64,000 bases of DNA from an uncultured Chloroflexia bacterium. GTDB taxonomy: Bacteria; Chloroflexota; Limnocylindria; Limnocylindrales; CSP1-4. The DNA lies in assembly GCA_963809045.1 (NCBI GenBank), contig CAWEHW010000001.1:473141-537140 (forward strand). The letters run 5' to 3'. Of the stretch, positions 2,846-38,217 are shown piece after piece; positions within the stretch are counted from its first letter, which is position 1; each line of letters starts with the position of its first letter. The notes below the pieces were generated by a model. That model saw only the letters and a list, made by a program, of their open reading frames with translations. It was not told where the DNA came from and searched no databases. The translations under genes and the position numbers were made by a program.

Positions 2846-3556
2846 ATGACGACCCCACCGATCATCCTGGTTCCTGGATTCTGGCTTGGCGCATGGGCAT
2901 GGGACGAGGTCGCCGCGGCGTTGCGTGCCGACGGCCACGACGTCACGGCGCTGACGTTGCCCGGTCTCGAGTCAGCCGACACGGACCGATCGACCGTCAG
3001 CCTGGCCGACCACGTCGACGCCATCGTGGATGCGGTTCGAGCGGCCGGCGCACCGGTCGTCCTGGCCGTGCACAGCGGGACCGGCTTCTCCGGCTATGCC
3101 GCGAGCGACCGTGTGCCGGATCGCATCGCGGCGATGGTCTATGTCGACTCGGCGCCGGGCAAGGGCGCCATGGACGCCGAGTTCGACGCCGACGACAGGC
3201 CGCTCAACTGGGCGGAGTTGTCTGCGGAGGAAAATCTCGATGGCCTGAGCGAGGAACAGCTCGCCACCTTTCGCGCCCGGGCAGTGCCGGAGCCTGGAGC
3301 CGTTTTCCGTGAGGGTGTCGAGCTGACCAATGACGCTCGTCGCGACATCCCGACGACGATGATCTGCACCGGCTTCTCCTCCGAGAAGTACAAGGAAGCG
3401 GTCAAGGATGGGTATGCGTGGCTAAGCGGCGTGCCCGAGCTGCGCGACATCACGTGGGTCGACCTGCCCACGAGTCACTGGCCGATGTGGTCACGCCCGG
3501 TGGAGCTCGCCGCGATCATCGGGGACGTCGCGAAGGCGCATAGCGCCCGGATCTGA
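2846..3556 (+). CDS. alpha/beta hydrolase fold protein
   Basis: PIILVPGFWLGAWAW...VLAVHSGTG nucleophile-elbow-like motif (HSGTG), ~235 aa. Confidence 0.75.
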   Translation: MTTPPIILVPGFWLGAWAWDEVAAALRADGHDVTALTLPGLESADTDRSTVSLADHVDAIVDAVRAAGAPVVLAVHSGTGFSGYAASDRVPDRIAAMVYVDSAPGKGAMDAEFDADDRPLNWAELSAEENLDGLSEEQLATFRARAVPEPGAVFREGVELTNDARRDIPTTMICTGFSSEKYKEAVKDGYAWLSGVPELRDITWVDLPTSHWPMWSRPVELAAIIGDVAKAHSARI

Positions 3557-3567
3557 ATCCGGCCTGG

Positions 3568-4737
3568 TCAGCGGGACCGGCGGGTGACGTCGAGGACGAT
3601 GGCTTCGACCGCTGCGCGGAATGCCGGATCCTCCCACTTGCCCGGCGGCTCGGGCGCGGTCGGCTTGAAGCGGCGGTCGACCGCCGACTGGATCCCGTTC
3701 CGGATCGGCGTGAACACGCTGGCCAGCGCCAGCGCGCTGATCACCGCGGCGGCGTCCGATGTATTCCCCGTGGCCGCGACGAACAACCGCTGCAGCAGCG
3801 CCACCATTCCGGCGTAGATTCCCGCGACGATGCCCACCAACGGCACGTAGACCAGCGTCCGGTTGATGAGGGTGTCGATCTCGTAGAGCCGATAGCGGAG
3901 CACCGCGATGACCACGGCCAGGGGTACGAGCCCGAGGGTCAGGAGCGAGAGCACCGCCGTCCATGACTCCCCCACAAGGAGGCCGATCGGGAGCACGATG
4001 GCCAACAGGACGCCCGCGCAAAGGAACCACTTGAGCTGGTGTCGGATCTCGGTCGACGACGCCAGGTAGCGCACGATGAGGGAAGCCACGGCGACAAGCG
4101 TTCCGGTGGCGAGCGCAATGTTCGTCACTGCCGCCCCGACGAATCGCAGGTTGGCCGGCAGGACACCGATCCCGAGTGGGTTGACGGCCGCGACGGTCTC
4201 CTCCAGCGGGCCGGGAGCAATCGCGGTGAGCACGGATCCGGCGGCGATGGCGACGACACCCAGCCTGAATGCCGATGTCCACCACCCAGGCAACGGCTTC
4301 CCGGTCGGGAACACCGAGGCCAGGCCCGGCCCGACCGAGAAGAGGGCTGGGCCGAACAGGACGGCCCCAGCGAGGAAGAACCAGCCGCCGATCGCCTCGT
4401 TGCCTTGGATGAGCAACACGCCTACGAGGTATCCGAGAAAGACGGCGCCGAGCGAGGGGCCGCCGACGAGCACCAGCCACCCGACGGAGTTACGCGACTG
4501 CTGGAGCAAGATGAGCAGTCCTGCGGTGGCGAACACGACCACGTCGACGGCAATCGTGACGAGGAACACCGCGAGGTCGACGGTTTCCTCGGCGGGGTCG
4601 GACGCGAATGTCTGCGGAAAGAGGACGAGAGCAAAGGCGAGCACGCCTGCCTCGACGACCGCGAGGGCCCACAGAATCCACGGCAATGCCCTGGACACGC
4701 GGGTGTGGGAAGGCAGCGCCACGGCCTCGCTCGACAT
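3568..4737 (-). CDS. polytopic integral membrane protein, function unknown
   Basis: 389-aa ORF with ~10 hydrophobic segments and a soluble C-terminal tail. No recognisable catalytic motif. Confidence 0.6.
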   Translation of the reverse strand: MSSEAVALPSHTRVSRALPWILWALAVVEAGVLAFALVLFPQTFASDPAEETVDLAVFLVTIAVDVVVFATAGLLILLQQSRNSVGWLVLVGGPSLGAVFLGYLVGVLLIQGNEAIGGWFFLAGAVLFGPALFSVGPGLASVFPTGKPLPGWWTSAFRLGVVAIAAGSVLTAIAPGPLEETVAAVNPLGIGVLPANLRFVGAAVTNIALATGTLVAVASLIVRYLASSTEIRHQLKWFLCAGVLLAIVLPIGLLVGESWTAVLSLLTLGLVPLAVVIAVLRYRLYEIDTLINRTLVYVPLVGIVAGIYAGMVALLQRLFVAATGNTSDAAAVISALALASVFTPIRNGIQSAVDRRFKPTAPEPPGKWEDPAFRAAVEAIVLDVTRRSR

Positions 4738-4761: not shown

Positions 4762-5148
4762 CTACCGGCTCGCGGAGCGGTGAGCGACCTGCGCGGCGAT
4801 CGCATCCATCACCCACGGCGCAGCGACGTCACCGGACCTTCGAACCTTGACGTGACGGGCGCGCTTCCCGGTGCCTTCGATCCTGCCGTGGGGGTTCGGA
4901 AGGTCGACGCCGTCAACGAGCTGCAGGTTGACGTGCGACTTGTGCGGGACGATCGCGAGGCAGAGATCGCGGATCGTTCTCCCGGAACCGAACCCCAGCA
5001 CGCCGTCGCTCGGGTCGAACCATTCGACGGCGTCCGGGAACGCCTCGAGAACGGCAAGGCGGAGGGCGCGTGCGATCTCGGCCACCTCTGGCGTCGAGCC
5101 CCCGAGGAAGCGGTCGAACGTGACGGCATCCTCGCTCGGTTCGGTCAC
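4762..5148 (-). CDS. DUF1801 (YdhG-like) domain protein
   Basis: C-terminal part of the over-long track ORF 4762..6204: ...AEIARALRLAVLEAFPDAVEWFD...LAIVPHKSHVNLQLVDG... matches the DUF1801/YdhG pattern. Proposed GTG start overlaps the leuS stop (GTGA). First of three paralogs in the window. Confidence 0.55.
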   Translation of the reverse strand: MTEPSEDAVTFDRFLGGSTPEVAEIARALRLAVLEAFPDAVEWFDPSDGVLGFGSGRTIRDLCLAIVPHKSHVNLQLVDGVDLPNPHGRIEGTGKRARHVKVRRSGDVAAPWVMDAIAAQVAHRSASR

Positions 5149-7749
5149 CGAACGACCAGGTTCACCAAGCGTCCGCCTCCGGCCACGACGACGCGGTCCG
5201 GCGTCCGCCCGTCGAGGATCGCCACGATCTTCTCGCGCGCCAGCACGGCGGATTCGATCTCCGCATCCGATGCGCCGGAGGGCACGACCACGCGATCCCG
5301 CAGCTTGCCGTTGACCTGGACCGGGATCTCGCGGGTCGCTTCGACGATGGCGCTCGGATCGAGCTCCGGCCAGCGCTGCGTGTGGATCGATGCCCATGCC
5401 TCGCTGCTCGCCACCAGCCGCCGGCTCCACAACTCCTCGCTGATGTGTGGCGCCGCGGGGGCGAGCATCAGGAGCAGCAGGCGGATCGCCTCGTCCCATT
5501 CCGCTCCGCCCGCGATCTCCGTTCCGCGGTACCGGAACAGCGTGTTGGACAGCTCCATCAGCTTGGCGATCATCGTGTTGAAGCGGAAGCCGTCGTAGTC
5601 CTCGGTCACATCGCGCAACGTCCGATGCGCCGCGGTGCGGATCGCCAGACGGGCATCTGGCGCCGACTCGCCGGCTGGCAGCGATCCCGCGGCGGGATCG
5701 CCTGGCTCGCGGCCGTGCGCATCCAGGACGAGCGTCCAGACCCGGGTCAGGAACCGATGGACTCCGCCAATGCCCGTCGGGCTCCACGGGCCACCCTGAT
5801 CCCAGGGACCCATGAACATCAGGAACAGGCGAACAGTGTCGGCGCCATACCGACGCACCAGCTCGTCGGGGTCCTGCACGTTGCCCCGCGACTTGCTCAT
5901 CCGCTCGCCATCGGCGCCCAGGATCTGGCCCTGGTTGAACATGCGCAGGAACGGCTCGCGGTGCTCGATCAGGCCGCTGTCGGCCATCGCCTTCGTGAAG
6001 AAGCGGCTGTACAGCAGGTGCATGACGGCGTGCTCGGCGCCACCGGTGTACTGCTCGACCGGCGTCCACTTCCGCGCCAACTCGGGGTCGATCGGGGCGA
6101 CCTCGTCCTCGGGCGACAGGTAGCGATACCAGTACCAGGACGAATCCATGAAGGTGTCCATCGTGTCCGTCTCGCGACGAGCTGGCTGTCCGCAGCGCGG
6201 GCATTCGACGCGCAGGAACGCTTCGTCGTGGTTCAGGGGGTTGTCACCGCTGCCGGCGTAGTCGACGGTCTCGGGTAGCAGGACGGGGAGCTGGTCATAG
6301 GGGACCGGCACGATGCCGTCGCGTTCGCAGTAGATGACCGGGATCGGGGTGCCCCAGTAGCGCTGGCGGCTGATCAACCAGTCCCGCAGGCGATAGGTGA
6401 CTTTTGGTTCCGCCCGCCCTTGAGCGGCCAGCGATTCGACGATGGCCTTGCCGCCCGCATCCGCGAGCATCCCGTCAAACCGATCGCTGTTGACCAGGCG
6501 CTCGTCAGCCGAGTGCGCCACGTAGGCGTCCGCCATCGGCGCATCCGCTTCGGTGCCGGGCGCGGCCACGACCCGGCGGATGGTCAGCCCAAAGTTGCGC
6601 GCGAATTCGAAGTCGCGCTCGTCGTGGGCCGGGACGGCCATGATCGCGCCCGTGCCGTAACCGGACAGGACGTAGTCCGCGATGAAGATCGGGATCCGCT
6701 CCCCGTTGACGGGATTGATGGCGTGTGCGCCAAGGGCGATGCCGGTCTTCGGTCGGTCGGTCGATAGCCGCTCGATCTCGGTCTCGCGGCGCGCCTGGCT
6801 CACGTAGGCATCGACGTCCGCCTGGCGGTCCGGATGGGTCAGCTTCGCGACCAACGCGTGCTCGGGCGCCAGGACCATGAAGGTCGCCCCGAACAACGTG
6901 TCGGGTCGCGTGGTGAACACGCGAATTCGATCGCCCTCGGGCTGACCGTCAGGTCCGTCGCCTGGCGCCTCGTCCTGGCGCGACGTCGAAGTCGATCTCG
7001 GCGCCTTCGGATCGGCCGATCCAGTTCGTCTGCATGATCCGGACGGGTTCTGGCCAATCGATGCCCGTGAAGTCGAGCAGCTCGTCGGCATACTTCGTCG
7101 TTCGCAGGAACCACTGCTCCAGGTCGCGCTTCTCGACGAGCGCGTGGCAGCGCCAGCAGCGTCGCTCCGTGCCCTCGACCTGTTCGCGGGCGAGCGTGCC
7201 GTCGTTGGGACACCAATCGACCGCGGACAGCGCCCGGTAGGCCAGCCCGGCTTCCAGGAACTTCAGGAACAGCCACTGGTTCCAGCGGTAGTAGCTGGGA
7301 TCGGCCGTGACGACCTCGTTGTCCCACGCGAACGTCGCGCCCATCGTCCGGAACTGCCGTCGCATCGTTTCGATGTTCGACATCGTCCAGGTAAACGGAT
7401 GGCCACCGTTCTTGATCGCGGCGTTCTCCGCCGGCAGCCCGAAGGCATCGAACCCGATCGGAAAGAACACGTTGTACCCGTGCATCCGGCGGTAGCGGGC
7501 CAGGGCGTCGCTCGGCGTGACGATGTACCAGTGGCCGATGTGCAGGTCGCCCGAGGGATACGGGTACATGGTCAGGAGGTAGTACTTGGGCTTCGAATCG
7601 TCGTCCAGGTTCGTGTCGTGCAGGCCGAGCTCCGCCCAGCGAGCCTGCCAGTGCGGCTCGATGGTCGTCGGGTCGTAGCGTTCGACCCTGGTTCGGCTCT
7701 GGGTGGTCTCGGTCACGATCGTCCTCGGAGACGGTTCACCCCCCGCCAC
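5145..7749 (-). CDS. leuS: leucine--tRNA ligase, with an apparent single-nucleotide frameshift near 6.96-6.99 kb
   Basis: N-terminal ORF (6949..7749) has the HIGH motif ([13 protein letters not shown]) and [14 protein letters not shown]-terminal ORF (5145..7091) has [15 protein letters not shown], the KMSKS motif and VVNLVV. The two overlap in different frames at 6949..7091. Confidence 0.85.
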
Positions 7750-7786
7750 GCCGGCGAGGGGTGAGGATTCGCGGTCTCGTCGCGGG

Positions 7787-7862
7787 TGGTGGAGCTACGG
7801 GGACTCGAACCCCGGACCCCCTGCATGCCATGCAGGTGCTCTTCCAGCTGAGCTATAGCCCC
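7787..7862 (-). tRNA. tRNA-Ala (anticodon GGC)
   Basis: Reverse complement GGGGCTATAGCTCAGCTGGAAGAGCACCTGCATGGCATGCAGGGGGTCCGGGGTTCGAGTCCCCGTAGCTCCACCA. Cloverleaf with G3:U70, anticodon loop AT-GGC-AT, encoded CCA. Confidence 0.9.
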
Positions 7863-21823: not shown

Positions 21824-21843
21824 ATAGAACAGATGTTCTATCT
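21824..21843. promoter_or_regulatory. LexA (SOS/Cheo-type) box GATAGAACAGATGTTCTATC in the imuA' / response-regulator divergent promoter
   Basis: Perfect inverted repeat TAGAAC-N4-GTTCTA matching the GAAC-N4-GTTC LexA core. Lies 8 nt upstream of the proposed imuA' start and 38 nt upstream of the divergent RR start. Confidence 0.6.
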
Positions 21844-21850
21844 TGGATGG

Positions 21851-22948
21851 ATGACGGCACTCCCCGCGGACGTGACGGCAGCCGTGGCGAGCCTCCAGGC
21901 TCGCTGGGGTGCGGCAGCTCCGCGGATCGCCGAACGAGCCACGGATGGGGCCCTGGCCCTGGCGCCCGAATCGGCGCCAAATCCGGACCCGGGACCACTG
22001 CCCGTCCCGGTCCGGGACGCGAACGAGCGGATCGTCCGGACCGGGTTTGCCGCGCTCGACGCGATCCTGGGACCGGGCGGGCTGCCTCGTTCGGCGAGCG
22101 TCGCCATCCGTGGCGATGGCTCCAGCGGCCGGACCACGCTCGTGCTGCGGCTTGCCGCAGAGGCGCAGTCCACCGGGTCCATCGTGGCCTGGCTGGACCT
22201 CGCCAGGAGCTTTGATCCGGTCGAAGCGGTCGCCCGTGGCGTTCGGCTCGAATGGCTGGTGGTCATCACTCCCGAAACGCTCGACGAAGGGCTGGCCATC
22301 GGTGGGGCGTTGCTTGCCGGGCGTTCGGTGGACCTGCTGGTCCTGGACCTGCCCGGTGGCCGGCTGGCGGCGACGGACCGTCCCGCGGTCATCGCCGAAC
22401 GGCTCGGCCGTCTCGCCGCCCTGGCCAGGCGAGCGGAGACGTTGCTCGTCGTGCTGGAACCGCCCGGTCTCGCCGGCAGCCTGGCCGGAGCCGTGGCCGA
22501 ATCGACCAGCCTCCGCCTGGAGCTGGCCCGGCGGTCGTGGATCCGCCTCGGGCGCGACATCGTCGGCCAGCGCACCGAAGCGCTGGTCGCCCGGAACCGC
22601 TACGGCCCGCCGGGGCGCCGGGCGACGCTCCGGATCCTCTACGCGGACGGCGGGGAGCGCGACGCCTGCCTCCGCCGTGACGAGCTCCTCCTCGACCAGA
22701 TCGTCGATCCAGCCCCCGCGAGTCATCCCGAACGGACCCACCGCGATGCGACTGCTTCATCTCTACCGGCCACACCTCCCCCTCGAGCTCGCCAGGGTGC
22801 GGGCCTCCGAGCCCTTCCCGCCCGGCCCGCTCATCCTGGGCGGCCGGCCGTGGGATCCGGGCCCGGTCATCGACGCGGATCCGGAAGCGCGGGCACTGGG
22901 CGTCCGCCGGGGGATCCCGCTCGGGAGCGCCCATCGGCTCGTTCCTGA
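21851..22948 (+). CDS. imuA: ImuA' (RecA/SulA-like SOS mutagenesis protein); 3' end uncertain
   Basis: RecA-like core FAALDAILGPGGLPRSASVAIRGDGSSGRTTLVLRLAA...VDLLVLD. Start moved to the Met at 21851 because the track start at 21833 sits inside the LexA box. The first in-frame stop is at 22948, 200 nt past the imuB start. Confidence 0.65.
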   Translation: MTALPADVTAAVASLQARWGAAAPRIAERATDGALALAPESAPNPDPGPLPVPVRDANERIVRTGFAALDAILGPGGLPRSASVAIRGDGSSGRTTLVLRLAAEAQSTGSIVAWLDLARSFDPVEAVARGVRLEWLVVITPETLDEGLAIGGALLAGRSVDLLVLDLPGGRLAATDRPAVIAERLGRLAALARRAETLLVVLEPPGLAGSLAGAVAESTSLRLELARRSWIRLGRDIVGQRTEALVARNRYGPPGRRATLRILYADGGERDACLRRDELLLDQIVDPAPASHPERTHRDATASSLPATPPPRARQGAGLRALPARPAHPGRPAVGSGPGHRRGSGSAGTGRPPGDPARERPSARS

Positions 22949-24029
22949 GGCGACCTTCCTCGATCCGGATCACGACGCCGACCGGGCGGCCGTCGAGGCC
23001 GCCTTCGAGGCGCTCGCAACGTTCAGCCCGGGGATCGCCGGCAGCACGGACCCGCTCGATCCGGCGTTCGGCCTGTTCGAGGTCCAGATCGACGGTCTCG
23101 AGCGGTTGTGGGGCCCCGAACCGGTGCTCATCGACCGGCTGGCCACCGCACTGGAGCGCTCGCTTGGGGGCGGCGAGGCTCCGGCGGGGAACGGCGGGGT
23201 TCGCGCGGGGATCGCCGGGACCCGGTTCACGGCCACGATCGCCGCGATCCACGCCCGCCCGGCCGCCGCCATCGTGGTCCCCGTGGGCGGCGAGGCCGAA
23301 TTCCTCGCCCCGCATCCCTCGACGCTGCTGACCACCGACCCGGATGTTCGGGCCAGGCTCGTCCGCTTTGGGCTGCGTCGGATCGGGGCGGTTGCCGAGC
23401 TTCCCCGCTCGGCGTTGATCGCCCGGTTTGGCGTGGAAGGTGGGCGGATCCATGCCCGTGCCCGGGGGGAGGAACTGGAGCCATTCCGGCCACGCCGGAC
23501 ACCCGAGCGCCTGACCCTCGCGCTCCCGATCGAACCGGCCGCCGAAGGCATCGAACCGCTGCGCTTCGTCCTCCACCGACTCGCCTCCGCCCTGACCGAT
23601 CAGCTGGCGGCTCGGGGCCTGGCGGCGTCGAAAGCGCATCTCCACCTCGACCTGGACCTCGCGTTTGCGAGGGCAGGGACGCCATCCGAGCTGGACGTGG
23701 AACAACGGTTTCCGGAACCCACCGCGGAGGCCGAGGCGATCGAGCGACTCCTGTTCGCGAGGCTGGAGCGAACCCCGCCTCCGGCTGCCGTGGAGCGCCT
23801 GGCCCTGGAGCTGGATGGCACGGCGCCGGCGGCCGGTCAACAACTCCTGCTGTTCACTCCCCAGGCCGCCCGGGGAGCCCGGCTCGAGTGGCAGCTGGCC
23901 CGGCTCGCCCTGACGTTTGGCGAGGATCGCGTCCGGCGGGTCGACCTGGCCGATCCGGAGGCACCGTTGCCGGAGGCCCGCTGGCGTTGGCGGCCGATCC
24001 TCTCGGGTGACGGGGGCGTGGCGCGATGA
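22746..24029 (+). CDS. imuB: ImuB (catalytically inactive Y-family polymerase-like mutasome subunit)
   Basis: Located directly after the ImuA-like gene and before dnaE2. ~427 aa with Y-family-like N-terminal fold (LHLYRPHLPLELA...RRGIPLGSAHRLVPEATFL). Typical imuA'-imuB gene order. Confidence 0.75.
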   Translation: MRLLHLYRPHLPLELARVRASEPFPPGPLILGGRPWDPGPVIDADPEARALGVRRGIPLGSAHRLVPEATFLDPDHDADRAAVEAAFEALATFSPGIAGSTDPLDPAFGLFEVQIDGLERLWGPEPVLIDRLATALERSLGGGEAPAGNGGVRAGIAGTRFTATIAAIHARPAAAIVVPVGGEAEFLAPHPSTLLTTDPDVRARLVRFGLRRIGAVAELPRSALIARFGVEGGRIHARARGEELEPFRPRRTPERLTLALPIEPAAEGIEPLRFVLHRLASALTDQLAARGLAASKAHLHLDLDLAFARAGTPSELDVEQRFPEPTAEAEAIERLLFARLERTPPPAAVERLALELDGTAPAAGQQLLLFTPQAARGARLEWQLARLALTFGEDRVRRVDLADPEAPLPEARWRWRPILSGDGGVAR

Positions 24030-24274
24030 CCCGGTTGCTTCGGGAGCACCCCACGATCGAGACCGAGCTCGGCGACGACGGCCGGCTGCTGGCGATCCGG
24101 TGGAACGGCCGGCGCGAGGTGGTCGAGGTCTGCAACCGCTGGCGGGTCGAGGAGGCCTGGTGGCGAGGACCGATCGCCCGCGACTATTTCAAGGTTGCCG
24201 GCGATCGCTGGCTGGCGCTCGTCTACTTCGATCGCGTGGACGGCACATGGCACCTCGAGCGTCTCTACGACTAG
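24026..24274 (+). CDS. hypothetical Trp-rich protein (82 aa), translationally coupled to imuB
   Basis: ATG overlaps the imuB stop (ATGA). Translation MTRLLREHPTIETELGDDGRLLAIRWNGRREVVEVCNRWRVEEAWWRGPIARDYFKVAGDRWLALVYFDRVDGTWHLERLYD has a protein-like composition. Confidence 0.5.
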   Translation: MTRLLREHPTIETELGDDGRLLAIRWNGRREVVEVCNRWRVEEAWWRGPIARDYFKVAGDRWLALVYFDRVDGTWHLERLYD

Positions 24275-24500: not shown

Positions 24501-24995
24501 TCACGGTGCCGGGCAGCCGCCTCCGTATCGCACGGTGATCGTGGTCAGGCCACCCAGCGGAGCGACGGCGACCTGGATTCGGCAGTCCGATGCGCCCTCG
24601 GAGTCGAGAACGAAGCTCCCGTCCTCGAGCGGGCCGTTGAGCGCCTCGGTGGCGTACGTCGCTCGCTCCAGCTCGGTCTGCATCCAGCCGGCCACGGTCC
24701 GGGCGTCGGCGCCCTCGAGCGCGAGGGTGGCAGACGCCACTTCGGTTGCCGCGTCGTCCGCCGGCGTAGCCCCGGGGTAGACCGGGAACGCCTCGGGCAC
24801 GCCATCCCAGATCCGACCCCAGTCCGTGTCGGTCTGTCCCGCGGGCGCAGGGTTTGAACCTGGCCCGCCCGTGGATGGCTCGACCGCCGGCGAGGGCCCG
24901 CTGGGGATCGACGCCGGTGTCGAGGGACCGCACGCCGCGACCACCAGGTATGTGGCAAAGGTGACGCCGAGCGCGCGCCTGGACGTCAGGGTCAT
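24501..24995 (-). CDS. lipoprotein, function unknown
   Basis: Signal peptide with lipobox (LVVAAC), then a Pro/Ser/Gly-rich linker and a ~100-aa domain. Confidence 0.6.
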   Translation of the reverse strand: MTLTSRRALGVTFATYLVVAACGPSTPASIPSGPSPAVEPSTGGPGSNPAPAGQTDTDWGRIWDGVPEAFPVYPGATPADDAATEVASATLALEGADARTVAGWMQTELERATYATEALNGPLEDGSFVLDSEGASDCRIQVAVAPLGGLTTITVRYGGGCPAP

Positions 24996-25334: not shown

Positions 25335-25352
25335 ATAGAACATTTGTTCTAT
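25335..25352. promoter_or_regulatory. LexA (SOS/Cheo-type) box ATAGAACATTTGTTCTAT upstream of and overlapping the dnaE2 start
   Basis: Perfect TAGAAC-N4-GTTCTA palindrome, near-identical to the box at 21824. The MFY... track start of dnaE2 lies inside it. Confidence 0.6.
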
Positions 25353-27488
25353 GATGACCAGCCCCCCAGTCAGCCGCTTCGAGCGGAGCGACCCGTGGCG
25401 CAGACGCCGTACGCCGAACTCCACTGCCACACCAACTTCTCGTTCCTCGATGGGGCGTCACCGGCTGACGATCTCGTGGAGCGTGCCGTCGAGCTGGGTT
25501 TGACAGGGCTGGCCGTCACGGACCATGCCGGGCTCTATGGCGCGGTTCGGTTCGTCAGCGCGGCCGAGGCCGCCGGACTGCACCCGCTGGTCGGGCTCGA
25601 GATCGAACTGCTGGACCCGGCCGTTCCGGATCCCGACGGGCTCGTCCTGGCGCCGCGCCGGCCAGTTCGCCGGGGACGGCGTGCTCACCCGGTTGACGGC
25701 ACGTCGTCGCCCGACGCTGCCGAAGGTCTGCCGGTCCGTCCACGTCCGGTGCGGCCGCTGCTCCCGGGTCATCGCGAGCCGGTCAAGGAGGACCTGCGCG
25801 GCATCCGTGATCGGACGCGCGGGCCACATCTCGTCCTGCTGGCTCGATCGCAGGTTGGCTGGCGGAGCCTCTGCCGGCTCGTGTCGCGGGCCAACCTGGT
25901 CGGGACCAAGGGTGTCCCGCGCTTCAGCCAGGCGTTGCTCGCCGCGCACACGGAGGGCCTGGTGGCGCTGTCGGGTTGCGGCGAAGGCGAGCTGGCTCGC
26001 CGGTTGCGGGCGGGCGATCGTTCCGGCGCACAGGCGGTGGCCGAGCGCTACGCGGCCCTGTTCGGACGTGGCGATGGCCCGGCTACGGCCGGTTTCTTCG
26101 TCGAGCTGTCGCACCACCTGCTCCCCGACGACGACTGGCTCGTGTCCGAATCGGCGGCCCTCGCCGAGGAGCTCGGATTGCCGGTCGTGGTCACCAACGA
26201 CGTCCACTACGCCCGGCCGGAGGACCGCGAGCTCGCCGACGTCCTGACCGCCATTCGCCACGGCCGGTCGCTCGACACGCTCGGCGACCTGCGCCGGCCC
26301 GATGGTGAGTCGTACCTCAAGTCGGGTGACGAGATGGGCGCGCTCCCACCCGGCGATCCCGCGGTGGCGACCGGCGATCCGCGCGCCGCCCGAGCCTGGG
26401 CGGAGGGCCTGACGACGGCGGCGGAGCTCGCGGCGTCCTGCTCGATCGATCTCGGCTTCGAGCAGTACCGTTTCCCGGGCTTCCCGGTCCCCGACGGGGA
26501 GACGCCCTTTTCGTACCTGTCCGAGCTGTGCTGGGAGGGCGCCCGGAAGCGCTACCACCCCCTGACCTCGGCGGTCGTCATGCGGCTCGCCCACGAGCTC
26601 GAGGTCATCGAGCGAGCCGGCCTCGCCGAGTTCTTCCTGATCTGCTGGGACCTGATGCGCTTCGCGAAGGAGCAGAAGATCCCGGCGCAGGGCCGGGGCA
26701 GCGCGACCAGCTCGATCGTGTCGTACACCCTCGGGATCAGCCGGGTGGAGCCCATCGCCCACAACCTCCTGTTCGAGCGGTTCATCAATCCCGGCCGGAC
26801 GACCTACCCGGACGTCGACATCGACTTCAGCTCGGAACGGCGTGAGGAGGTCATCCAGTACGTCTACCGGCGCTACGGCCCAGAACACACGGGGATGGTC
26901 TGCAACCTCGTGACATACCGGGCACGGTCCGCGGTGCGCGAGGTGGGCTACGCGCTGGGGTTCCCGCGGCCGCTCGTCGATCGGGTCGCGAAGGCGCTCG
27001 AGACCTACGACAGCGTGATGGTCCGGCGCGACCTCGAGGCTGACGGTGGGTTTGCCGAGTTCTTCCGGCGGACGGGAGAGGGGCTGCCACCCGAGGCGGG
27101 CGCGGCCCAGGCCGCCCAAGCTCTCGGACTGGTCGACGGAATGGGCCAGCTGAACACGCGGATCCCGCTCATCGGAAAGGTGCCGCCCTGGCGCCAGACG
27201 CCGAAGCCGGAGGACCCGGACGCACCGCAACCGTTCGCCTGGCTCAACGAAGGGTCGGATGGGTCCGGGACGGAGGGCGGGCCGTCGGCCGCCGACGTCG
27301 CGGCCCCGGTGCCCGTGCCCGACGATTCCCACCGCCTACCAACCCCTGTGGTGCGCGACAGCACGGATGCCTCGACCGCCCACCATGCACCACCCCGATT
27401 GGTACGTGGTGTCGATCAAGTGGATTCGGCTGTCCCTGGGAGCGGACGGGCTAGGCCCACCCATGTCCCGTACTACCCCGGTTGGTAA
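25344..27488 (+). CDS. dnaE2: error-prone DNA polymerase DnaE2/ImuC, N-terminal segment (PHP and palm; frame 0)
   Basis: YAELHCHTNFSFLDGAS (PHP), then GRGSATSSIVSYTLGIS...PDVDIDF (palm catalytic Asp residues). Frame ends at TAA 27486-27488 inside a low-complexity insertion. The true start may be the GTG near 25398. Confidence 0.8.
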   Translation: MFYDDQPPSQPLRAERPVAQTPYAELHCHTNFSFLDGASPADDLVERAVELGLTGLAVTDHAGLYGAVRFVSAAEAAGLHPLVGLEIELLDPAVPDPDGLVLAPRRPVRRGRRAHPVDGTSSPDAAEGLPVRPRPVRPLLPGHREPVKEDLRGIRDRTRGPHLVLLARSQVGWRSLCRLVSRANLVGTKGVPRFSQALLAAHTEGLVALSGCGEGELARRLRAGDRSGAQAVAERYAALFGRGDGPATAGFFVELSHHLLPDDDWLVSESAALAEELGLPVVVTNDVHYARPEDRELADVLTAIRHGRSLDTLGDLRRPDGESYLKSGDEMGALPPGDPAVATGDPRAARAWAEGLTTAAELAASCSIDLGFEQYRFPGFPVPDGETPFSYLSELCWEGARKRYHPLTSAVVMRLAHELEVIERAGLAEFFLICWDLMRFAKEQKIPAQGRGSATSSIVSYTLGISRVEPIAHNLLFERFINPGRTTYPDVDIDFSSERREEVIQYVYRRYGPEHTGMVCNLVTYRARSAVREVGYALGFPRPLVDRVAKALETYDSVMVRRDLEADGGFAEFFRRTGEGLPPEAGAAQAAQALGLVDGMGQLNTRIPLIGKVPPWRQTPKPEDPDAPQPFAWLNEGSDGSGTEGGPSAADVAAPVPVPDDSHRLPTPVVRDSTDASTAHHAPPRLVRGVDQVDSAVPGSGRARPTHVPYYPGW

Positions 27489-29961
27489 GTGGCGGGATTC
27501 GGGCATGTGGGACCGGGCCCCAGAGTCGCCGCCTGGGATCCGCCCTGGCGGTCGCACGGACGATGAGGGTGGGCCGGGTGACACCGCCGCGAGCGTCGCC
27601 TGGCTCCGGGCGGGCCGTGGGACGGGGTACGAGGCGGATCGCGACCGGCTCACGGCCGACCGCGACCGGTTGCTCCCGCCCGACCGCGACCGGCTGCTCC
27701 CGCCCGACCGCGAACGGCTGCTCCCGCCCGCGTTGATCGAAGGTCGCCGGGTGGACCCCGAGAGCGGCCAGCTGGAGTCGCCGCCGCGGGCGACGGAGGG
27801 CCGGGCGACGGAGGGCCGGGTGGCGGATCGACTTGGACGCCCGAGCCGCTGGGACCCACCAGCGCCTTGGACAGCGACGATGGGGCGAGGGGGTGACCGT
27901 TCGGCGGTGGCCCGGGTCGAGCCGGAGCCTCCGCCCCAGCCCAGGGGTGGTTCGACCGTTGGCTTGTCGGACTGGGAGCGCTGGCTCGAGTTCTGCGCCC
28001 GGATCGACGGGTTCCCGCGCCATCTGTCGATCCATAGCGGCGGGATGCTGGTGACCGCGGCGCCCCTGATCGACATCGCCCCGCTGGAACGGGCGACCAT
28101 GCCCGACCGGGTGGTCGTCCAGTTCGACAAGCGCGATGTCGAGACGCTCAAGCTGATCAAGCTGGACCTGCTGGGTCTCGGGATGCTCGCGGCGATGGAC
28201 GAGACGCTCCAGCTGATCGAGCACGACTGCGCGGTCTGCCTCGACCTCGATCGGATGCCCGAGGACATCCCGGAGGTCTTCGCCATGCTCCAGGCGGCCG
28301 ACACGGTCGGGGTCTTCCAGGTCGAGAGCCGGGCCCAGATGCAGACGCTGCCCAAGTCGCGGCCACAGAAGCTGGACGACCTCGTGGTGGAGGTGGCGAT
28401 CATCCGGCCGGGTCCGATCCAGGGCAACGCCGTCCATCCCTACCTGCGTCGAAAGCAGGGACTGGAGCCGGTGACCTACCTCCACCCGAGCCTGGAACCG
28501 GTGCTCAAGGACTCGATGGGGGTGATCCTCTACCAGGAGCAGGTCATGCGGATCGCCATCGAGGTGGCCGGATTCTCGGCGGCCGACTCGGACGGGTTCC
28601 GGCGGGCGATGGGCACCTGGCGCTCCAGCCGCGAGATGGAGAAGCTCCACAGCCAGTTCTTCGAGGGCTGCATGCGCCAGCCCGGCATGACCGAGGAGGT
28701 CGCGGAGGAGCTGTTCCGCCAGGTCGCTGCGTTCGCCTCGTTCGGGTTCGCCAAGTCACACGCGGCGGCGTTCGCGCGGACGGCCTACGAGTCGTCGTTC
28801 CTCAAGCTGTTCTACCCGGCCCAGTTCCTCACCGGGCTGATCAATGCCCAGCCGATGGGGTTCTACCCGGTGGAGGTCCTGGTCAACGACGCCAAGCGCC
28901 ACGGGGTCGCCATCCTCCCGGTCGACATCAACGCCTCCACCTACAGGACGACGACCGAATGGGCGGGTCACCCCGGCTGGGTGATGGCCGGCGCAGCCGG
29001 TGATGCCGGCTCCCACGACGACGACCCCGGGGAGCCGTTGCCGGAGGGGTCGGGGATTGCCGCGCGACCGCGGCCGGTTCGGTCGCCGGCCTGCGTCATC
29101 CCGTCCACAGCGGCCCGCGAGCGCTGGATCCCCGAGACCGCCACCGGCTGGGGGGTCCGCCTGGGCCTGGGCCTGGTCAAGGGGATCGGGGAGCAGCACG
29201 AGGCGCTCCTGGATCGGGAGCTGGCCCGAGGCCGGTACGAGACCCTGGTCGACGTCGTGGAACGGACCGGGCTGCCAGAGGAGGTCATTGAGCGGCTGAT
29301 CCGGACCGGGGCGCTCGATTCGCTTGGGCGGCCGCGGCGCGAGCTGCTCTGGCAGCTGCGCGAGGTGGCCGGTGCGTCACGCGGTCGGGTCGATGGCCGA
29401 ACCCTGCGCGGTGCGGCACGGGCCGGCGGCCGGCGCTCGGTGGCTGCCGGGAGGCCGATGGACCTGCGCCTGCCCGCAACGGAGGCTCCGCCGCTCCCCG
29501 AGCTGACCGAATCGGAACGGATCGGCGATGCCTACGCGGTGATCGGGCTGGATCCCCGCCGCCAGGTCGTGACCTTGTTCCGCCCGGCGCTCGATCGGCT
29601 CGGCGCGGTCACCAACGCCTCGCTCTCGGAGCGGCGGTCAGGCCCGATCCGGATCGGTGGGCTGGTGGTGACCCGCCAGCACCCGATGACGGCCAAGGGC
29701 ACGGTCTTCCTCGCGCTCGAGGACGAAACCGGGATGGTCAACGTCACGCTCTGGCCGGATACCTGGGCGCGGCTGCGAAGCGTGGTCCGCAGGCACGCCC
29801 TGCTGCTGGTTGACGGCGACCTCCAGCGCGAGGGCGAGGTGGTCAACGTGGTGGCCCACGACATCCGGGCCCTCCCCGAGGTGGCCGCACCGGCCGGCGG
29901 CCCGGATCAGCCAGCCGGGGTTCGTCAGCTCGGGCACGCCGGGATGCGGAGACTCGGTTAG
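27259..29961 (+). CDS. dnaE2: error-prone DNA polymerase DnaE2/ImuC, C-terminal segment (fingers, HhH, OB; frame +1)
   Basis: After ~230 low-complexity residues come ERWLEFCARIDGFPRHLSIHSGGM, LIKLDLLGLG, VFQVESRAQM, IIRPGPIQG and an OB-fold tail. Overlaps the N-terminal segment (27259..27488) in a different frame. Confidence 0.8.
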   Translation: MGPGRRAGRRPPTSRPRCPCPTIPTAYQPLWCATARMPRPPTMHHPDWYVVSIKWIRLSLGADGLGPPMSRTTPVGKWRDSGMWDRAPESPPGIRPGGRTDDEGGPGDTAASVAWLRAGRGTGYEADRDRLTADRDRLLPPDRDRLLPPDRERLLPPALIEGRRVDPESGQLESPPRATEGRATEGRVADRLGRPSRWDPPAPWTATMGRGGDRSAVARVEPEPPPQPRGGSTVGLSDWERWLEFCARIDGFPRHLSIHSGGMLVTAAPLIDIAPLERATMPDRVVVQFDKRDVETLKLIKLDLLGLGMLAAMDETLQLIEHDCAVCLDLDRMPEDIPEVFAMLQAADTVGVFQVESRAQMQTLPKSRPQKLDDLVVEVAIIRPGPIQGNAVHPYLRRKQGLEPVTYLHPSLEPVLKDSMGVILYQEQVMRIAIEVAGFSAADSDGFRRAMGTWRSSREMEKLHSQFFEGCMRQPGMTEEVAEELFRQVAAFASFGFAKSHAAAFARTAYESSFLKLFYPAQFLTGLINAQPMGFYPVEVLVNDAKRHGVAILPVDINASTYRTTTEWAGHPGWVMAGAAGDAGSHDDDPGEPLPEGSGIAARPRPVRSPACVIPSTAARERWIPETATGWGVRLGLGLVKGIGEQHEALLDRELARGRYETLVDVVERTGLPEEVIERLIRTGALDSLGRPRRELLWQLREVAGASRGRVDGRTLRGAARAGGRRSVAAGRPMDLRLPATEAPPLPELTESERIGDAYAVIGLDPRRQVVTLFRPALDRLGAVTNASLSERRSGPIRIGGLVVTRQHPMTAKGTVFLALEDETGMVNVTLWPDTWARLRSVVRRHALLLVDGDLQREGEVVNVVAHDIRALPEVAAPAGGPDQPAGVRQLGHAGMRRLG
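27637..27729 (+). repeat. ~3.9 tandem copies of a 24-nt repeat (GACCGCGACCGGCTGCTCCCGCCC) inside the dnaE2 insertion
   Basis: Direct tandem units at ~27658, 27682 and 27706 plus a partial leading unit. They encode (D/E)RDRLLPP repeats. A 15-nt duplication (GCGACGGAGGGCCGG x2) follows at ~27789-27818. Confidence 0.7.
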
Positions 29962-34505: not shown

Positions 34506-34744
34506 GGCGGCTCGGTAGCGACGCCGTGCCGCGGCGCGTTCGGATGAGGTTCGTTTGGCGCGGGCCACAGTGTCTCCTGTTGAGCGGGCTCGGCTGAGCG
34601 ATCGGACGTGGTGCATCGTAGTCGAACGCCAACGCAGTGGCCCCGATACGTCGCGATTGAGGCGCGCGTAAGCCGATGTGCAGCCTGCGCCGGTACAACC
34701 TCCCTCTGGCCCGCTGCGCATCCCGTCCATGTGGGAGAACACCG

Positions 34745-37700
34745 ATGGATCGTGCCCGGCGCGCTGGTGCAACCGCGCTCATCGTCGCCCTGCTCGTCAC
34801 AGCCAACGCTCCGGGGGCCCGGCCAGCTCTGGCGGCGGCCGTGTCGTGGCCCGTTTCGTCGCTCGTCGTGTCCGAATTTCAGACCGGCGGCGCATCGGCT
34901 TCGGATGAGTTCGTCGAGATCGCGAACCAGGGCTCGGCGCCGGTGGACATCGTCGGACTCGAAGTCGTCTATGCGACCGCGTCGGGCTCGACCGTGACGC
35001 GGAAAGCCGCGTGGGATGTCTCCACGGTCCTGCCACCCGGTCGGCGCCTCTTGCTGGCGAACAGTGGCGGCATCTTCGCAGCCGTCGCGGATATCGCGTA
35101 CTCGGGTGGGTTCGCGGCGACGGGTGGTGCGCTGGCGATCCGGGTTGTCGGCGGCTCCGTCATCGATTCGGTCGGCTGGGGCGACGCTACGAGCGGCATG
35201 GTCGAAGGCATCGTCGCCGTCGCCCCACCCGCCGGATCCAGTCTCGAACGCAAGCCGGGCGCAACGGCAGGAAACACGACCGACACGAACGACAACGCAG
35301 CGGACTGGTTCGTCCAGGGCACGCCGTCGCCGCAAGGCTTTGCCTCGCCGCCCGTCCCGAGCACGACGTCCACCCCCACGCCAACGCCGCCCTCAGGACC
35401 TACGCCGACACCGACCCCGACACCAAGCGCCACGCCGACACCCACGCCGACACCCGCGCCGACTCCAGGTCCGACTCCCACGCCCACACCAACGCCCGTG
35501 GCAACACCGACGCCCACCCCCGTGGCGACACCGACGCCCATGCCGACGCCAACACCAACGCCCGCACCCGGCGCCGTCTCAATTGCCACCGCACGGACGC
35601 TCGCGGACAACACCCAGGTGACGATCGATGGCGTCCTGACCACACATCTCGGGGTAGTCGAGTCCGGCCGCGGCGGGTTCGTCCAGGACGAGTCAGGCGG
35701 GATCGCCATCTACCTGGACGCCGCGGTCGTGGGCTCGTGGCCGGCAGGCACCGCGGTCACACTCCGGGGCGAGGTCTCGAGCCGGTTCGCCCAGCGAACC
35801 ATCCGCCTCGCCGAGAGCGATCTGGTGAAAGACGCAACGATGGACCTGCCAGTTGCCATGGCCATCGCGACCGGCTCGGCAACCGAGGCGCATGAGGGGA
35901 TCCGCGTTGCGTTGACCGGCGCGGTCGAGGGCTCGCCAAGCACCCTCAGCGACGGCATCGCGGTCAACGTGGACGACGGGACCGGCCCGGTGCGCGTCGT
36001 GATCGGAGACGAGGCGCTCGCAGGCGAGACGATCGCGTCCGGCATGATCGCCACGGTGTCGGGTCCCCTCGGTCAGCGCGACAGCTCCGGGACAGGCACG
36101 GCCGGGTACCGGGTGCACGCGACGCTGGCCGGGGAATTGCTGCTGGCCGCGCCCACACCCACCCCGACGCCCACCCCCACCCCTACGCCGACCCCGTCAC
36201 CCACCCCGACCCCGGCGCCGGGAGCGACACCGACGCCGAATGGAGATCCAACGCCCGGTCCCGGCCAGACCGTAGCCGGAGCGCGCGCCATGGACGTCGG
36301 AGCGTCGGTCAGCGTGACCGGCGTCGTCACCGCGGAGGCCGGCCGGCTCGGAACGCCGGCCCTGATCGGGCTGGCCGATGACACCGGCTGGCATCGCCGT
36401 CCGGTTGCCGAGCGGAGCCGAGGGCTTCCCGCGCGGCGCGCTCGTCGCAGGTCACGGGGACGCTCGCCGCGCCCTACGGTCAGCTCGAGATCCGCCCGGT
36501 CGCCAGTGGTCTCCGGGCCGTCGGAAGCGGCGCTGTTCCGGCACCGCTCCCGGCCGCGTCGGGTGCTCTCGATGAATCGCTCGAGGGCCGCCTCGTGTCG
36601 GTCAGCGGCACGGTTACGTCCAAGCCGAAGAAGTCGTCGGGTGGCGACCTGACCATCGTGCTCGAGCGTCCTGGATCGGCCTCGATCAAGATCGTGGCCG
36701 ACGGCTCGAGCCTGCTCGTCCGCGAGGCGTTCTCGGTGGGCGCGACGTATCGGGTCACCGGCATCGTCGGTCAACGGGCGACCAAGAAGGACGCGCCGGA
36801 TGGCTATCGCCTGTGCCCGCGTGACGCGGCGGACGTCGTGGCGATCGCGCCCGTGGCCGTTTCCGGCGCAGGAGGACCGGCGACACCAGGGTCAACCCCC
36901 ACGGTTCCGGCGAACGCGGCCGGCGCGGCCGGAATTCAGAGCATCGTCCCGATCAGCACGGCACTCGGCCGACACGACGTGGCCCTCGCCATCGAAGGGC
37001 TTGTCACCACGCCGGCGACCCTGCTCGACGCGACCGGGCGCCGGATCGTCGTCCAGGATGGTTCGGCCGCCATCGAGGTCCTCCTCCCGAGTGGCAGCGA
37101 TGCCCCGGCCGTGGGAGCGAGGATCAGGGCAAGCGGCAGCGTCGGCCTGGCCTACGGGGCACCCAGGCTTCGCGCCGAAGAGTTGACCGTGATCGGCACC
37201 GGGCGCCTGCCGGGACCGCTCGTCCTGCGTGCGGCACCCGCCCGCGCGCATGAATGGCGCCTCGTGTCGATCACGGGACGGATCGACGATGTCAAGAAGC
37301 TGGGCGAGCGATGGCGGGCCGAGCTGCTGGTCTCCGGGGCAAGGGTCGTGGTCGTCGGTCAGCCGGGTGCCGGGATCGCGGTCACGGCGCTGGCCGAGGG
37401 ACGCATGGCCACGATCGTCGGGATCGTTCGGCGGCCCTATCCGACGGCGACCGACCAACGGTTTGCCGTCACTCCGCGAACACCGGCGGACGTGCGAGTC
37501 CATGGCGGGCCGGCATCCGGCGCCGGCAATGACAGCCCGACCAGACTGCCGTCGGCGGGTTCAAATGGCGCACCGGCGTCGTCCCGCCCTGCCGCCGGGA
37601 CGGGTAGCCCCGGCGCGGTCGATGCCGACCTGATCGATCTGGCCGCGTTCAGCGGACGGCAAGTCCGCGTCGGGGGACTCGTCGTCGACCTTCGATCCGA

Positions 37701-38217
37701 TGGCCTCCTGCTCGATGACGGGACCACCATCGGCCTCATCGTCGTGCGCGGAGACGCCCTGGACCTGCTGCCCCTGCTCGAGCCCGACGATGCCATCAAC
37801 GCCATCGGCACGGTCGAGGTGGTGCCGGATGGGCTGGCCGTGGTCGTCGACGAGGCCGGCGGGATCATCCAGGCGGGTGAGCCCGTCGCGGCGCCACCGG
37901 CGTCATCGCCGCGTGCCGCGGAAGCAATGGGTGCGCCCTCAGCTCTCCCGGGCGGCCAGGCGGCGGTCCGCGATGCGGGGCTCTTCGACGGCTCCGGAGG
38001 CTTCGGCGCCGGGGTCGCAGGGATCGGCGGGCTCGTGGCCCTGACGCTGGCCTCGTTGCTGGTTACCATGGCCCGCCGCGCCCACGATCGGCGCCGGATC
38101 GTGGCTCGTGTGGCGGCTCGTGTGGCCGCGTTCGAGGCCTCGGCCGACCCGCCCGCAGGCCCGCCGTCGGGCCCACGCTCGGCTGAGCGTGGCGAGAGCA
38201 CGATCCGCGCTGCTTGA
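34745..38217 (+). CDS. large secreted LTD-domain protein with Pro/Thr-rich linkers and C-terminal TM anchor; two apparent frameshifts at ~36.39 and ~36.45 kb
   Basis: Signal peptide ([25 protein letters not shown]), LTD ([36 protein letters not shown]), (PT)n linkers, OB/Ig-like repeats, and a C-terminal TM helix plus basic tail ([26 protein letters not shown]). The protein-like reading passes through three frames: the 34676 ORF, a 36378 mini-ORF, and the 36595 ORF. Confidence 0.6.
35383..35560 (+). repeat. coding Pro-Thr-rich low-complexity repeat (PTPTP linker); a second copy lies at ~36151-36246
   Basis: Iterated CCSACGCCGACACC-type units encoding ...[39 protein letters not shown].... Confidence 0.6.

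Follow-up and report, generated by a model that had tools for sequence, protein, structure and literature searches.

A clade-specific thumb-tip insert in a Limnocylindria-type dnaE2 gene and a probable consensus error within it

DnaE2 (ImuC) error-prone DNA polymerases differ in length mainly through elements added or deleted in the PHP and thumb regions, and this variation correlates with genomic GC content (PMC3919608). The thumb part of the variation was noted in 2014 without explanation. The thumb helix-loop-helix, residues 513-552 of the Taq enzyme, contacts the DNA duplex (Timinskas et al. 2014, PMC3919608), and in Mycobacterium smegmatis DnaE1 a loop of residues 489-495, absent from DnaE2, enters the major groove (PMC12641269). 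In AlphaFold models of the mycobacterial mutasome, DnaE2 meets ImuB through its PHP and HhH regions and not through the thumb (PMC12926913). Here we describe a dnaE2 gene from an uncultured soil Chloroflexia bacterium (assembly GCA_963809045.1, contig CAWEHW010000001.1, positions 473,141 to 537,140), whose thumb tip carries a long low-complexity insert and whose conserved halves are found in two different reading frames. We call the whole stretch of 64,000 nucleotides the window; coordinates are positions in it, on the + strand unless stated otherwise. Our reading, held with good but incomplete confidence, is that the insert is real, that the frame break inside it is most likely a single-base error of the consensus sequence, and that the cell probably reads the gene in a single frame.

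The dnaE2 gene and its thumb-tip insert

The region 25344-29961 is one dnaE2 (imuC) gene, whose start codon is uncertain (a TTG at 25344) and whose product would be ~1,540 amino acids (aa) long. In the window it is not one uninterrupted open reading frame (ORF), while 88 of 90 orthologues are single-frame. The first ORF (25344-27488, 714 aa) lies in frame 0, with codon starts at 0 mod 3, and the second (27259-29961, 900 aa) in frame +1, at 1 mod 3. An earlier note on this DNA, made from the sequence alone, had frame 0 ending in a TAA at 27488 and frame +1 opening at 27259. The TAA stands as given (27486-27488), and frame +1 proves to be open as early as 27154, ahead of the ATG at 27259; the overlap of the two open frames comes to 332 nt. 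The true reading would have passed to +1 before this TAA, which is then not in its frame; translated in +1, the stretch across the TAA gives the conserved GKWRDSGMW.

Pfam and NCBIfam matches define an N-terminal conserved part (25344-27050, frame 0) with PHP, palm and the first half of the thumb, and a C-terminal conserved part (27973-29961, frame +1) with the rest of the thumb and palm, the fingers, HhH and OB. Pfam assigns PHP and the stretch 1-182 of the DNA_pol3_alpha model (PF07733, 260 positions) to the first ORF, and 193-260 of the same model, then finger, HHH_6 and OB, to the second. The cut in PF07733 at 182/193 thus spreads a single core domain of the polymerase over two frames. The order of PHP, Pol III alpha core, fingers, HhH and OB is that of DnaE2/ImuC, and the OB domain ends ~30 aa ahead of the stop codon. 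Against the NCBIfam model NF004225 ('error-prone DNA polymerase') the N half matches profile positions 3-464 with 404.5 bits and the C half positions 480-1033 with 631.5 bits; neither half passes the curated cut-off of 939 by itself, and the two summed (1036 bits) exceed it. The C half scores far above its matches to DnaE1 models (376 bits), and the score of the N half is about equal to that with one DnaE1 model (413.9). The N-terminal part, in a single frame, is 62-83% identical to relatives, and the C-terminal part is 65-90% identical to Limnocylindria-type relatives and 47-48% identical to more distant Chloroflexota loci (L018, L019 and L029). The closest loci in GTDB genomes are in metagenome-assembled genomes (MAGs) named Candidatus Limnocylindria, Limnocylindrales or 'Chloroflexia', with 65-90% identity over the conserved parts. 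By these comparisons the gene is an ordinary member of DnaE2 to which a clade-specific insert has been added at the thumb tip. Relative to the family profiles two further extra segments, both of low complexity, are seen in this DnaE2: ~80 aa in PHP (~25610-25840) and ~58 aa in HHH_6 (~29000-29200).

The thumb-tip insert occupies 27051-27972, the last conserved codon on the N side ending at 27050 and the first on the C side starting at 27973. Its 922 nt amount to 307 codons and 1 nt (922 mod 3 = 1). For comparison we used the conserved flanks (...DLEADGGF and WERWLEF...) as anchors in 160 loci from genomes and Joint Genome Institute (JGI) metagenomes; the 90 Chloroflexota loci with both anchors make up what we call the Candidatus Limnocylindria-type set. 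At exactly the same point, 88 of these 90 carry an insert that is in frame and free of stops, with a length that ranges from 276 to 1317 nt (92-439 aa, median ~250 aa) and is always a multiple of 3. In ~50 non-Chloroflexota DnaE2 loci, mostly from Actinomycetota with single loci from Gemmatimonadota, Proteobacteria and others, the length between the anchors is -45 to +24 nt, that is, the insert is absent. The insert is thus genuine, specific to the clade and under selection for its reading frame.

The conserved flanks were placed on known structures with phmmer against PDB chains. The N side reaches residue 486 of Escherichia coli alpha (Taq 525, mycobacterial DnaE1 ~487) and the C side begins at residue 495 (Taq 558), a position at the tip of the thumb helix-loop-helix. 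The earlier note had described dnaE2 halves in two frames around a ~0.9-kb insert rich in Gly, Arg, Pro and Asp, located in the thumb, and the ORF phases, the Pfam cut, the length of 922 nt, the composition and the interval 486/495 of E. coli alpha all agree with that description.

The insert is of low complexity, rich in P, R, G, A and D, and mostly predicted to be disordered. The residues G, P, R, D, A, E, S and T make up 76% of it vs 60% of the rest of the protein, a composition that favours disorder. An AlphaFold2 (AF2) model was made for a homologue with a short insert (P0071) from a 46-sequence alignment. It is poor overall, and within it the insert has predicted local distance difference test (pLDDT) scores <50 apart from one helix starting at PASxxFLR (motif D, below), which is weak evidence in the same direction. 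No Pfam family matches the insert protein and no Rfam family matches the insert DNA; phmmer with the insert core gave 46 matches among 1.84 billion representatives, in a library that carries no annotation.

Motifs, spacers and length change

The orthologous inserts consist of short motifs in a fixed order with low-complexity spacers between them. Motif A ([LIV][LIV]DxMGxL) occurs in 84 of the 88 orthologous inserts and motif B (PLVGKVPPWRQ...DPxAPxPFxW) in 57; these are followed by C1 (SGMWExAPESPP) or C2 (LPDALAP), found in 25 inserts each. Motif D (DD[EK]GGPGD[ST]PASVxWL) is the most conserved, with nearly invariant alignment columns and a count of 86/88. Motif E comprises IDPESG (70/88) and DRLGRPxxW (73/88), motif F is SSVARIEP (70/88), and the counts for E2, F and G together span 70-74/88. 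The 'GQLN' within motif A was considered as a clamp-binding motif and rejected: its likeness to the QLNLF of UmuC is superficial, and no conserved hydrophobic residues follow it in relatives.

Columns with at least 40% identity to the 88 orthologous inserts were taken as conserved islands, of which four lie in the insert of the window. Island 1 (27054-27251, frame 0: ...GLVDGMGQLNTRIPLIGKVPPWRQTPKPEDPDAPQPFAWL) holds motifs A and B. Island 2 (27517-27648, frame +1: APESPPGIRPGGRTDDEGGPGDTAASVAWLRAGRGTGYEADRDR) holds C1 and D; no other part of the insert is as well conserved. E1 is found in island 3 (27718-27789, LLPPALIEGRRVDPESGQLESPPR), and E2, F and G in island 4 (27826-27972, DRLGRPSRWDPP...SAVARVEPEPPPQPRGGSTVGLSD). 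A hypervariable spacer with no conserved columns (27252-27516) separates islands 1 and 2 and includes an optional segment that we call module X.

Two tandem repeats fall in two other spacers, both without orthologous columns. Tandem Repeats Finder reports a 24-nt unit encoding DRDRLLPP at 27648-27730 (x3.5, 93% matches, score 138) and a 15-nt duplication encoding ATEGR ATEGR at 27787-27820 (x2.3, 100%, score 68). The peptide of the former reads by eye as DRDRLTA-DRDRLLPP-DRDRLLPP-DRERLLPP, which makes the '3.9 copies' of the earlier note a fair count; the 15-nt duplication it had listed is likewise there. Orthologues have a single copy of the 24-nt unit, such as AERDRLVPP in L016 and ADRDRLLPP in L093, and do not have the ATEGR duplication, and therefore both repeats are private in-frame expansions.

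Repeats of this kind are common in the set. Tandem repeats were found in 31 of 91 inserts, 53 arrays in all, vs 9 of 91 equally sampled flanks, where all were weak; in 38 of the 53 arrays, every strong one included, the period is divisible by 3. The metagenome contigs L113 and L114, with flanks 99.8% identical, differ in frame by one 12-nt unit encoding GPSA (3.8 vs 4.8 copies, insert positions 397-453), a strain-level copy-number variation inside dnaE2 that was seen in this one pair. Larger differences separate L088 from L134 (flanks 97% identical, insert length differing by 204 nt) and L131 from L138 (94% and 720 nt). The length of the insert thus changes by in-frame tandem duplication together with larger in-frame indels, and does so fast relative to the divergence of its flanks. 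A hypervariable length combined with a frame that is always kept speaks for a polymerase that is functional at full length and against an on/off switch. Among the individual arrays, all in frame, are those of L006 (30 nt x5.2 and 18 nt x6.9, at insert positions 425-581 and 718-841), L112 (63 nt x2.3 and 30 nt x4) and L149 (54 nt x2.9).

Module X is an optional segment of ~60 codons (DDSHRLPTPVV...TTPVGK), present in 6 of the 91 sequences, namely the window, L087, L088, L089, L096 and L131. Its GC content is lower, 62% vs 75%. The main difference between L088 and L134 is a 258-nt module X, present in the former (3342-3642) and absent from the latter (1189-1236), and in L088 it is bounded by direct repeats of ~41 nt that encode LPDALAPRTAIRP. 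This pattern fits a deletion between pre-existing direct repeats equally well as an in-frame insertion. No further copy of module X was found by blastn in the 64-kb window and the 160 loci.

Position and origin of the frame break

Similarity of frame 0 to relatives is solid as far as DDSHRLPTPVVRDSTD (~27368) and plausible as far as ...VDQVDSAVPGSGRARP (~27461), and similarity of frame +1 is solid from TTPVGKWRDSGMWDRAPESPP (27472). The break is therefore inside 27369-27471, within module X in the variable spacer; GC content at third codon positions (GC3) switches its periodicity near 27300-27400. With the phase going from 0 to 1, the sequence must have either gained one base or lost two. The module X slice has 184 nt in the window vs 180 nt in L087, L088, L089 and L131, a difference of one codon and one base, from which we infer that one extra base probably stands somewhere in 27369-27471. 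In the DNA alignment of module X with these four relatives the middle is too divergent to name the base. A shift in the run of four C at 27476-27479 was rejected, since homology in frame +1 sets in ahead of this run, at 27472 (TTPVGK). The 24-nt and 15-nt repeats lie >170 nt downstream of the break, which is not at any repeat. The earlier note had the insertion itself splitting the gene; what splits it appears instead to be a one-base indel at a single point inside the insert.

That this indel is probably a consensus error follows from the company it keeps, because the same 64 kb has at least three further +1 shifts of a single base, all of them in genes that relatives carry intact. One is in leuS (5148-7794, - strand), where two overlapping ORFs meet at a +1 shift near 6965-6990. 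Pfam finds tRNA-synt_1 positions 2-205 in one ORF and the editing domain, positions 228-403 and the anticodon domain in the next, overlapping one; the motifs on either side of the shift are in different frames, and the first reading runs into a stop. As leuS is an essential, single-copy gene, its split is almost certainly an assembly error. The other two are in a large gene with a Pro/Thr-rich linker (34676-38217), which has +1 shifts near 36389 and 36449 and so passes through three successive frames within ~70 nt in the window; in L016, L004 and L001 its counterpart is one unbroken ORF (1155-1241 aa). The dnaE2 halves themselves are intact apart from the shift, with GC3 ~0.9 and high identity to relatives.

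Assembly type points in the same direction. The only other dnaE2 orthologues out of frame are L022 and L029, both in MAGs with contig names of the form 'MFD...contig_N'; these two have other shifts as well, L022 several in its dnaE2. Out-of-frame loci thus number 2 of 11 among the MFD assemblies vs 0 of 79 among the others (Fisher exact test ~0.014). We take the MFD assemblies to be those of the Microflora Danica long-read project. The earlier note had offered an assembly indel within a genuine disordered insertion as one of three options, and had pointed to orthologues with the same in-frame insert as evidence that would reduce the split to an artefact beside a lineage-specific linker. That option is the one we favour: the insert is present in 88 of 90 orthologues, in frame and as a multiple of 3, and other frame breaks lie in the same window.

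Several observations weigh against this conclusion. Exact look-up of the 900-aa ORF, protein search and metagenome scan brought up no other assembly of this species, and the best relatives have a flank DNA identity of ~90%, so that the error is deduced and not directly seen. The evidence on the position of the break is spread, protein similarity favouring ~27450-27471 and GC3 ~27370-27400. The assembly is not uniformly poor, in that ten other ORFs of the window, among them dnaJ, prmA, hrcA, grpE, an amidohydrolase gene and a YgjP-like gene, have no domains split by Pfam. As to the word disordered, the suggestion is a weak one, drawn from composition and from the low-confidence AF2 model (mean pLDDT 48.7).

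The extra base might also be real, in which case dnaE2 has just been inactivated and is a nascent pseudogene or a segregating null allele. The sequence as given does shift, with the TAA 15-117 nt downstream; the break lies in a mutation-prone spacer with repeats and indels; and dnaE2 is non-essential (PMC12926913). On the other side, the 4.6 kb of coding sequence has no other lesion, with GC3 and identity intact, the frame is kept in 88 of 90 orthologues, and the same +1 breaks in the essential leuS and in another conserved gene argue for a technical cause, so that we consider a real mutation unlikely. A pseudogene was the second option of the earlier note, and what can be kept of it is that any such pseudogene would be very recent, both halves being intact and conserved with GC3 >0.9. 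Its third option, a hypervariable insert of the contingency type, divides in two. Hypervariable length through tandem duplication stands; that repeat copy number switches the mutagenic polymerase on and off, and that the window caught it in the 'off' state, we regard as very improbable. Tandem repeats are indeed enriched in the insert and L113 and L114 do differ by one repeat unit, but with units of 24 and 15 nt in the window, and with the 38 arrays of relatives whose periods are multiples of 3, copy number leaves the frame unchanged; moreover, the frame break is well upstream of the repeats, and none of the 79 non-MFD loci is out of frame.

Scarcely credible, in our view, is a functional two-frame layout, whether through a programmed +1 ribosomal frameshift or as a split DnaE with or without an intein. 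A cyanobacterial split DnaE with a split intein exists (cited in PMC3919608) and the open frames here overlap by the 332 nt given above, but the orthologues are single-frame and so have no conserved shift site, the spacer that holds the shift is not conserved, and the cut falls inside the PF07733 core domain. An intein was also looked for as such and rejected: Pfam shows no Hint or intein domain in either ORF or in the insert, the inserts of the set are 92-439 aa of low complexity, and the junctions read ...GGFAEFF and ...GLSDWERW, without junction residues. An intron or RNA element was rejected likewise, with nothing in Rfam and DNA that encodes conserved peptides in frame.

A consensus error in the window has practical consequences: annotation should treat the 'split polymerase' as a single dnaE2 and mark the probable consensus error in it, and leuS and the gene at 34.7-38.2 kb need the same correction.

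Proteins called on long ENA contigs of the same clade also speak for a consensus error in dnaE2. In P0010, P0024, P0080, P0096, P0115 and P0119 parts of the insert are misread over tens of residues before the correct frame resumes, for example with RRRGRPGRHAGQRRLAAG where DDEGGPGDTPASVAWL is expected. This indicates multiple compensating consensus indels, which stay hidden since stops are rare at 75% GC.

Possible role, gene neighbourhood and comparison with known systems

The insert may be a flexible surface appendage that the thumb tip tolerates. Its conserved motifs probably either make contact with DNA or a partner protein or lengthen the thumb by a short helix, and its spacers may be neutral, slippage-prone linkers. 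The position beside the nascent duplex together with the strict conservation of motif D suggests either a thumb extension or a motif for contact with DNA or a partner. With the ImuB contacts located off the thumb in the mycobacterial models, such an appendage should not prevent the mutasome from assembling. A bolder proposal, which we think doubtful, is that the insert is a fast-evolving docking or tethering module of Limnocylindria-type mutasomes, in which motifs like DDEGGPGDTPASVAWL would bind DNA or a partner beside the nascent duplex and spacer length, varied from strain to strain by in-frame repeats, would tune the polymerase, or else that module X is an in-frame mobile insertion.

Either way, the core of an error-prone polymerase here carries a large clade-wide insert, selected for frame yet free in length, at the place where DnaE1 touches duplex DNA, and the thumb tip of a C-family polymerase is shown to be tolerant to insertion. 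The ~90 natural length variants with their fixed order of motifs could make the role of the DnaE2 thumb testable.

The gene appears to be part of an imuA'-imuB-dnaE2 mutasome cassette. An imuA'-like gene of the RecA fold (~21830-22885, partial NCBIfam RecA and ImuA_translesion matches) and an imuB-like, Y-family-like gene (~22746-24029, Pfam IMS and IMS_C with weak Pol IV-like NCBIfam matches) lie 1.3 kb upstream of dnaE2 on the same strand; the matches of both to cassette families are weak and under the curated cut-offs. A frameshift in imuB was considered and rejected, as the apparent pieces are three distinct genes that are separate and collinear in relatives too. Between imuB and dnaE2 there are an 82-aa ORF (24026-24274, + strand) directly after imuB and a 164-aa ORF (24504-24995, - strand); neither has a family match, and both recur beside the cassette in relatives.

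Compared with DnaE2/ImuC proteins at large, that of Mycobacterium tuberculosis included, the protein has the same domain order, no C-terminal tau-binding domain and a gene located downstream of imuA'-like and imuB-like genes. It differs from the ~50 non-Chloroflexota DnaE2s in having ~307 aa extra at the thumb tip and extra segments in PHP and HHH_6 as well, and in not being one ORF as assembled. The genome of the window, at 70% GC, fits the pattern of length and GC in the survey of Timinskas et al. 2014 (PMC3919608). Variation of thumb length in DnaE2 is already known in general; this Chloroflexota insert, its layout of motifs and spacers, its range of 92-439 aa and its repeat-driven turnover are absent from PMC3919608 and from the other literature searched.

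Two further classes of sequence offer parallels. With the in-frame variable-number tandem repeat (VNTR) linkers and loops of high-GC bacterial proteins the insert shares low complexity, in-frame units, rapid change of length and the retention of short motifs; unlike VNTR linkers, which lie between domains or at termini, it forms a loop inside the catalytic core of a polymerase, beside the DNA duplex. Rickettsia palindromic elements, reportedly described by Ogata and colleagues in 2000, are mobile sequences that enter protein-coding genes without disturbing the reading frame. Module X resembles them in being present or absent in frame and in its direct repeats of ~41 nt, and the frame break of the window lies within it; it differs from them in having no second copy in the window or the 160 loci.

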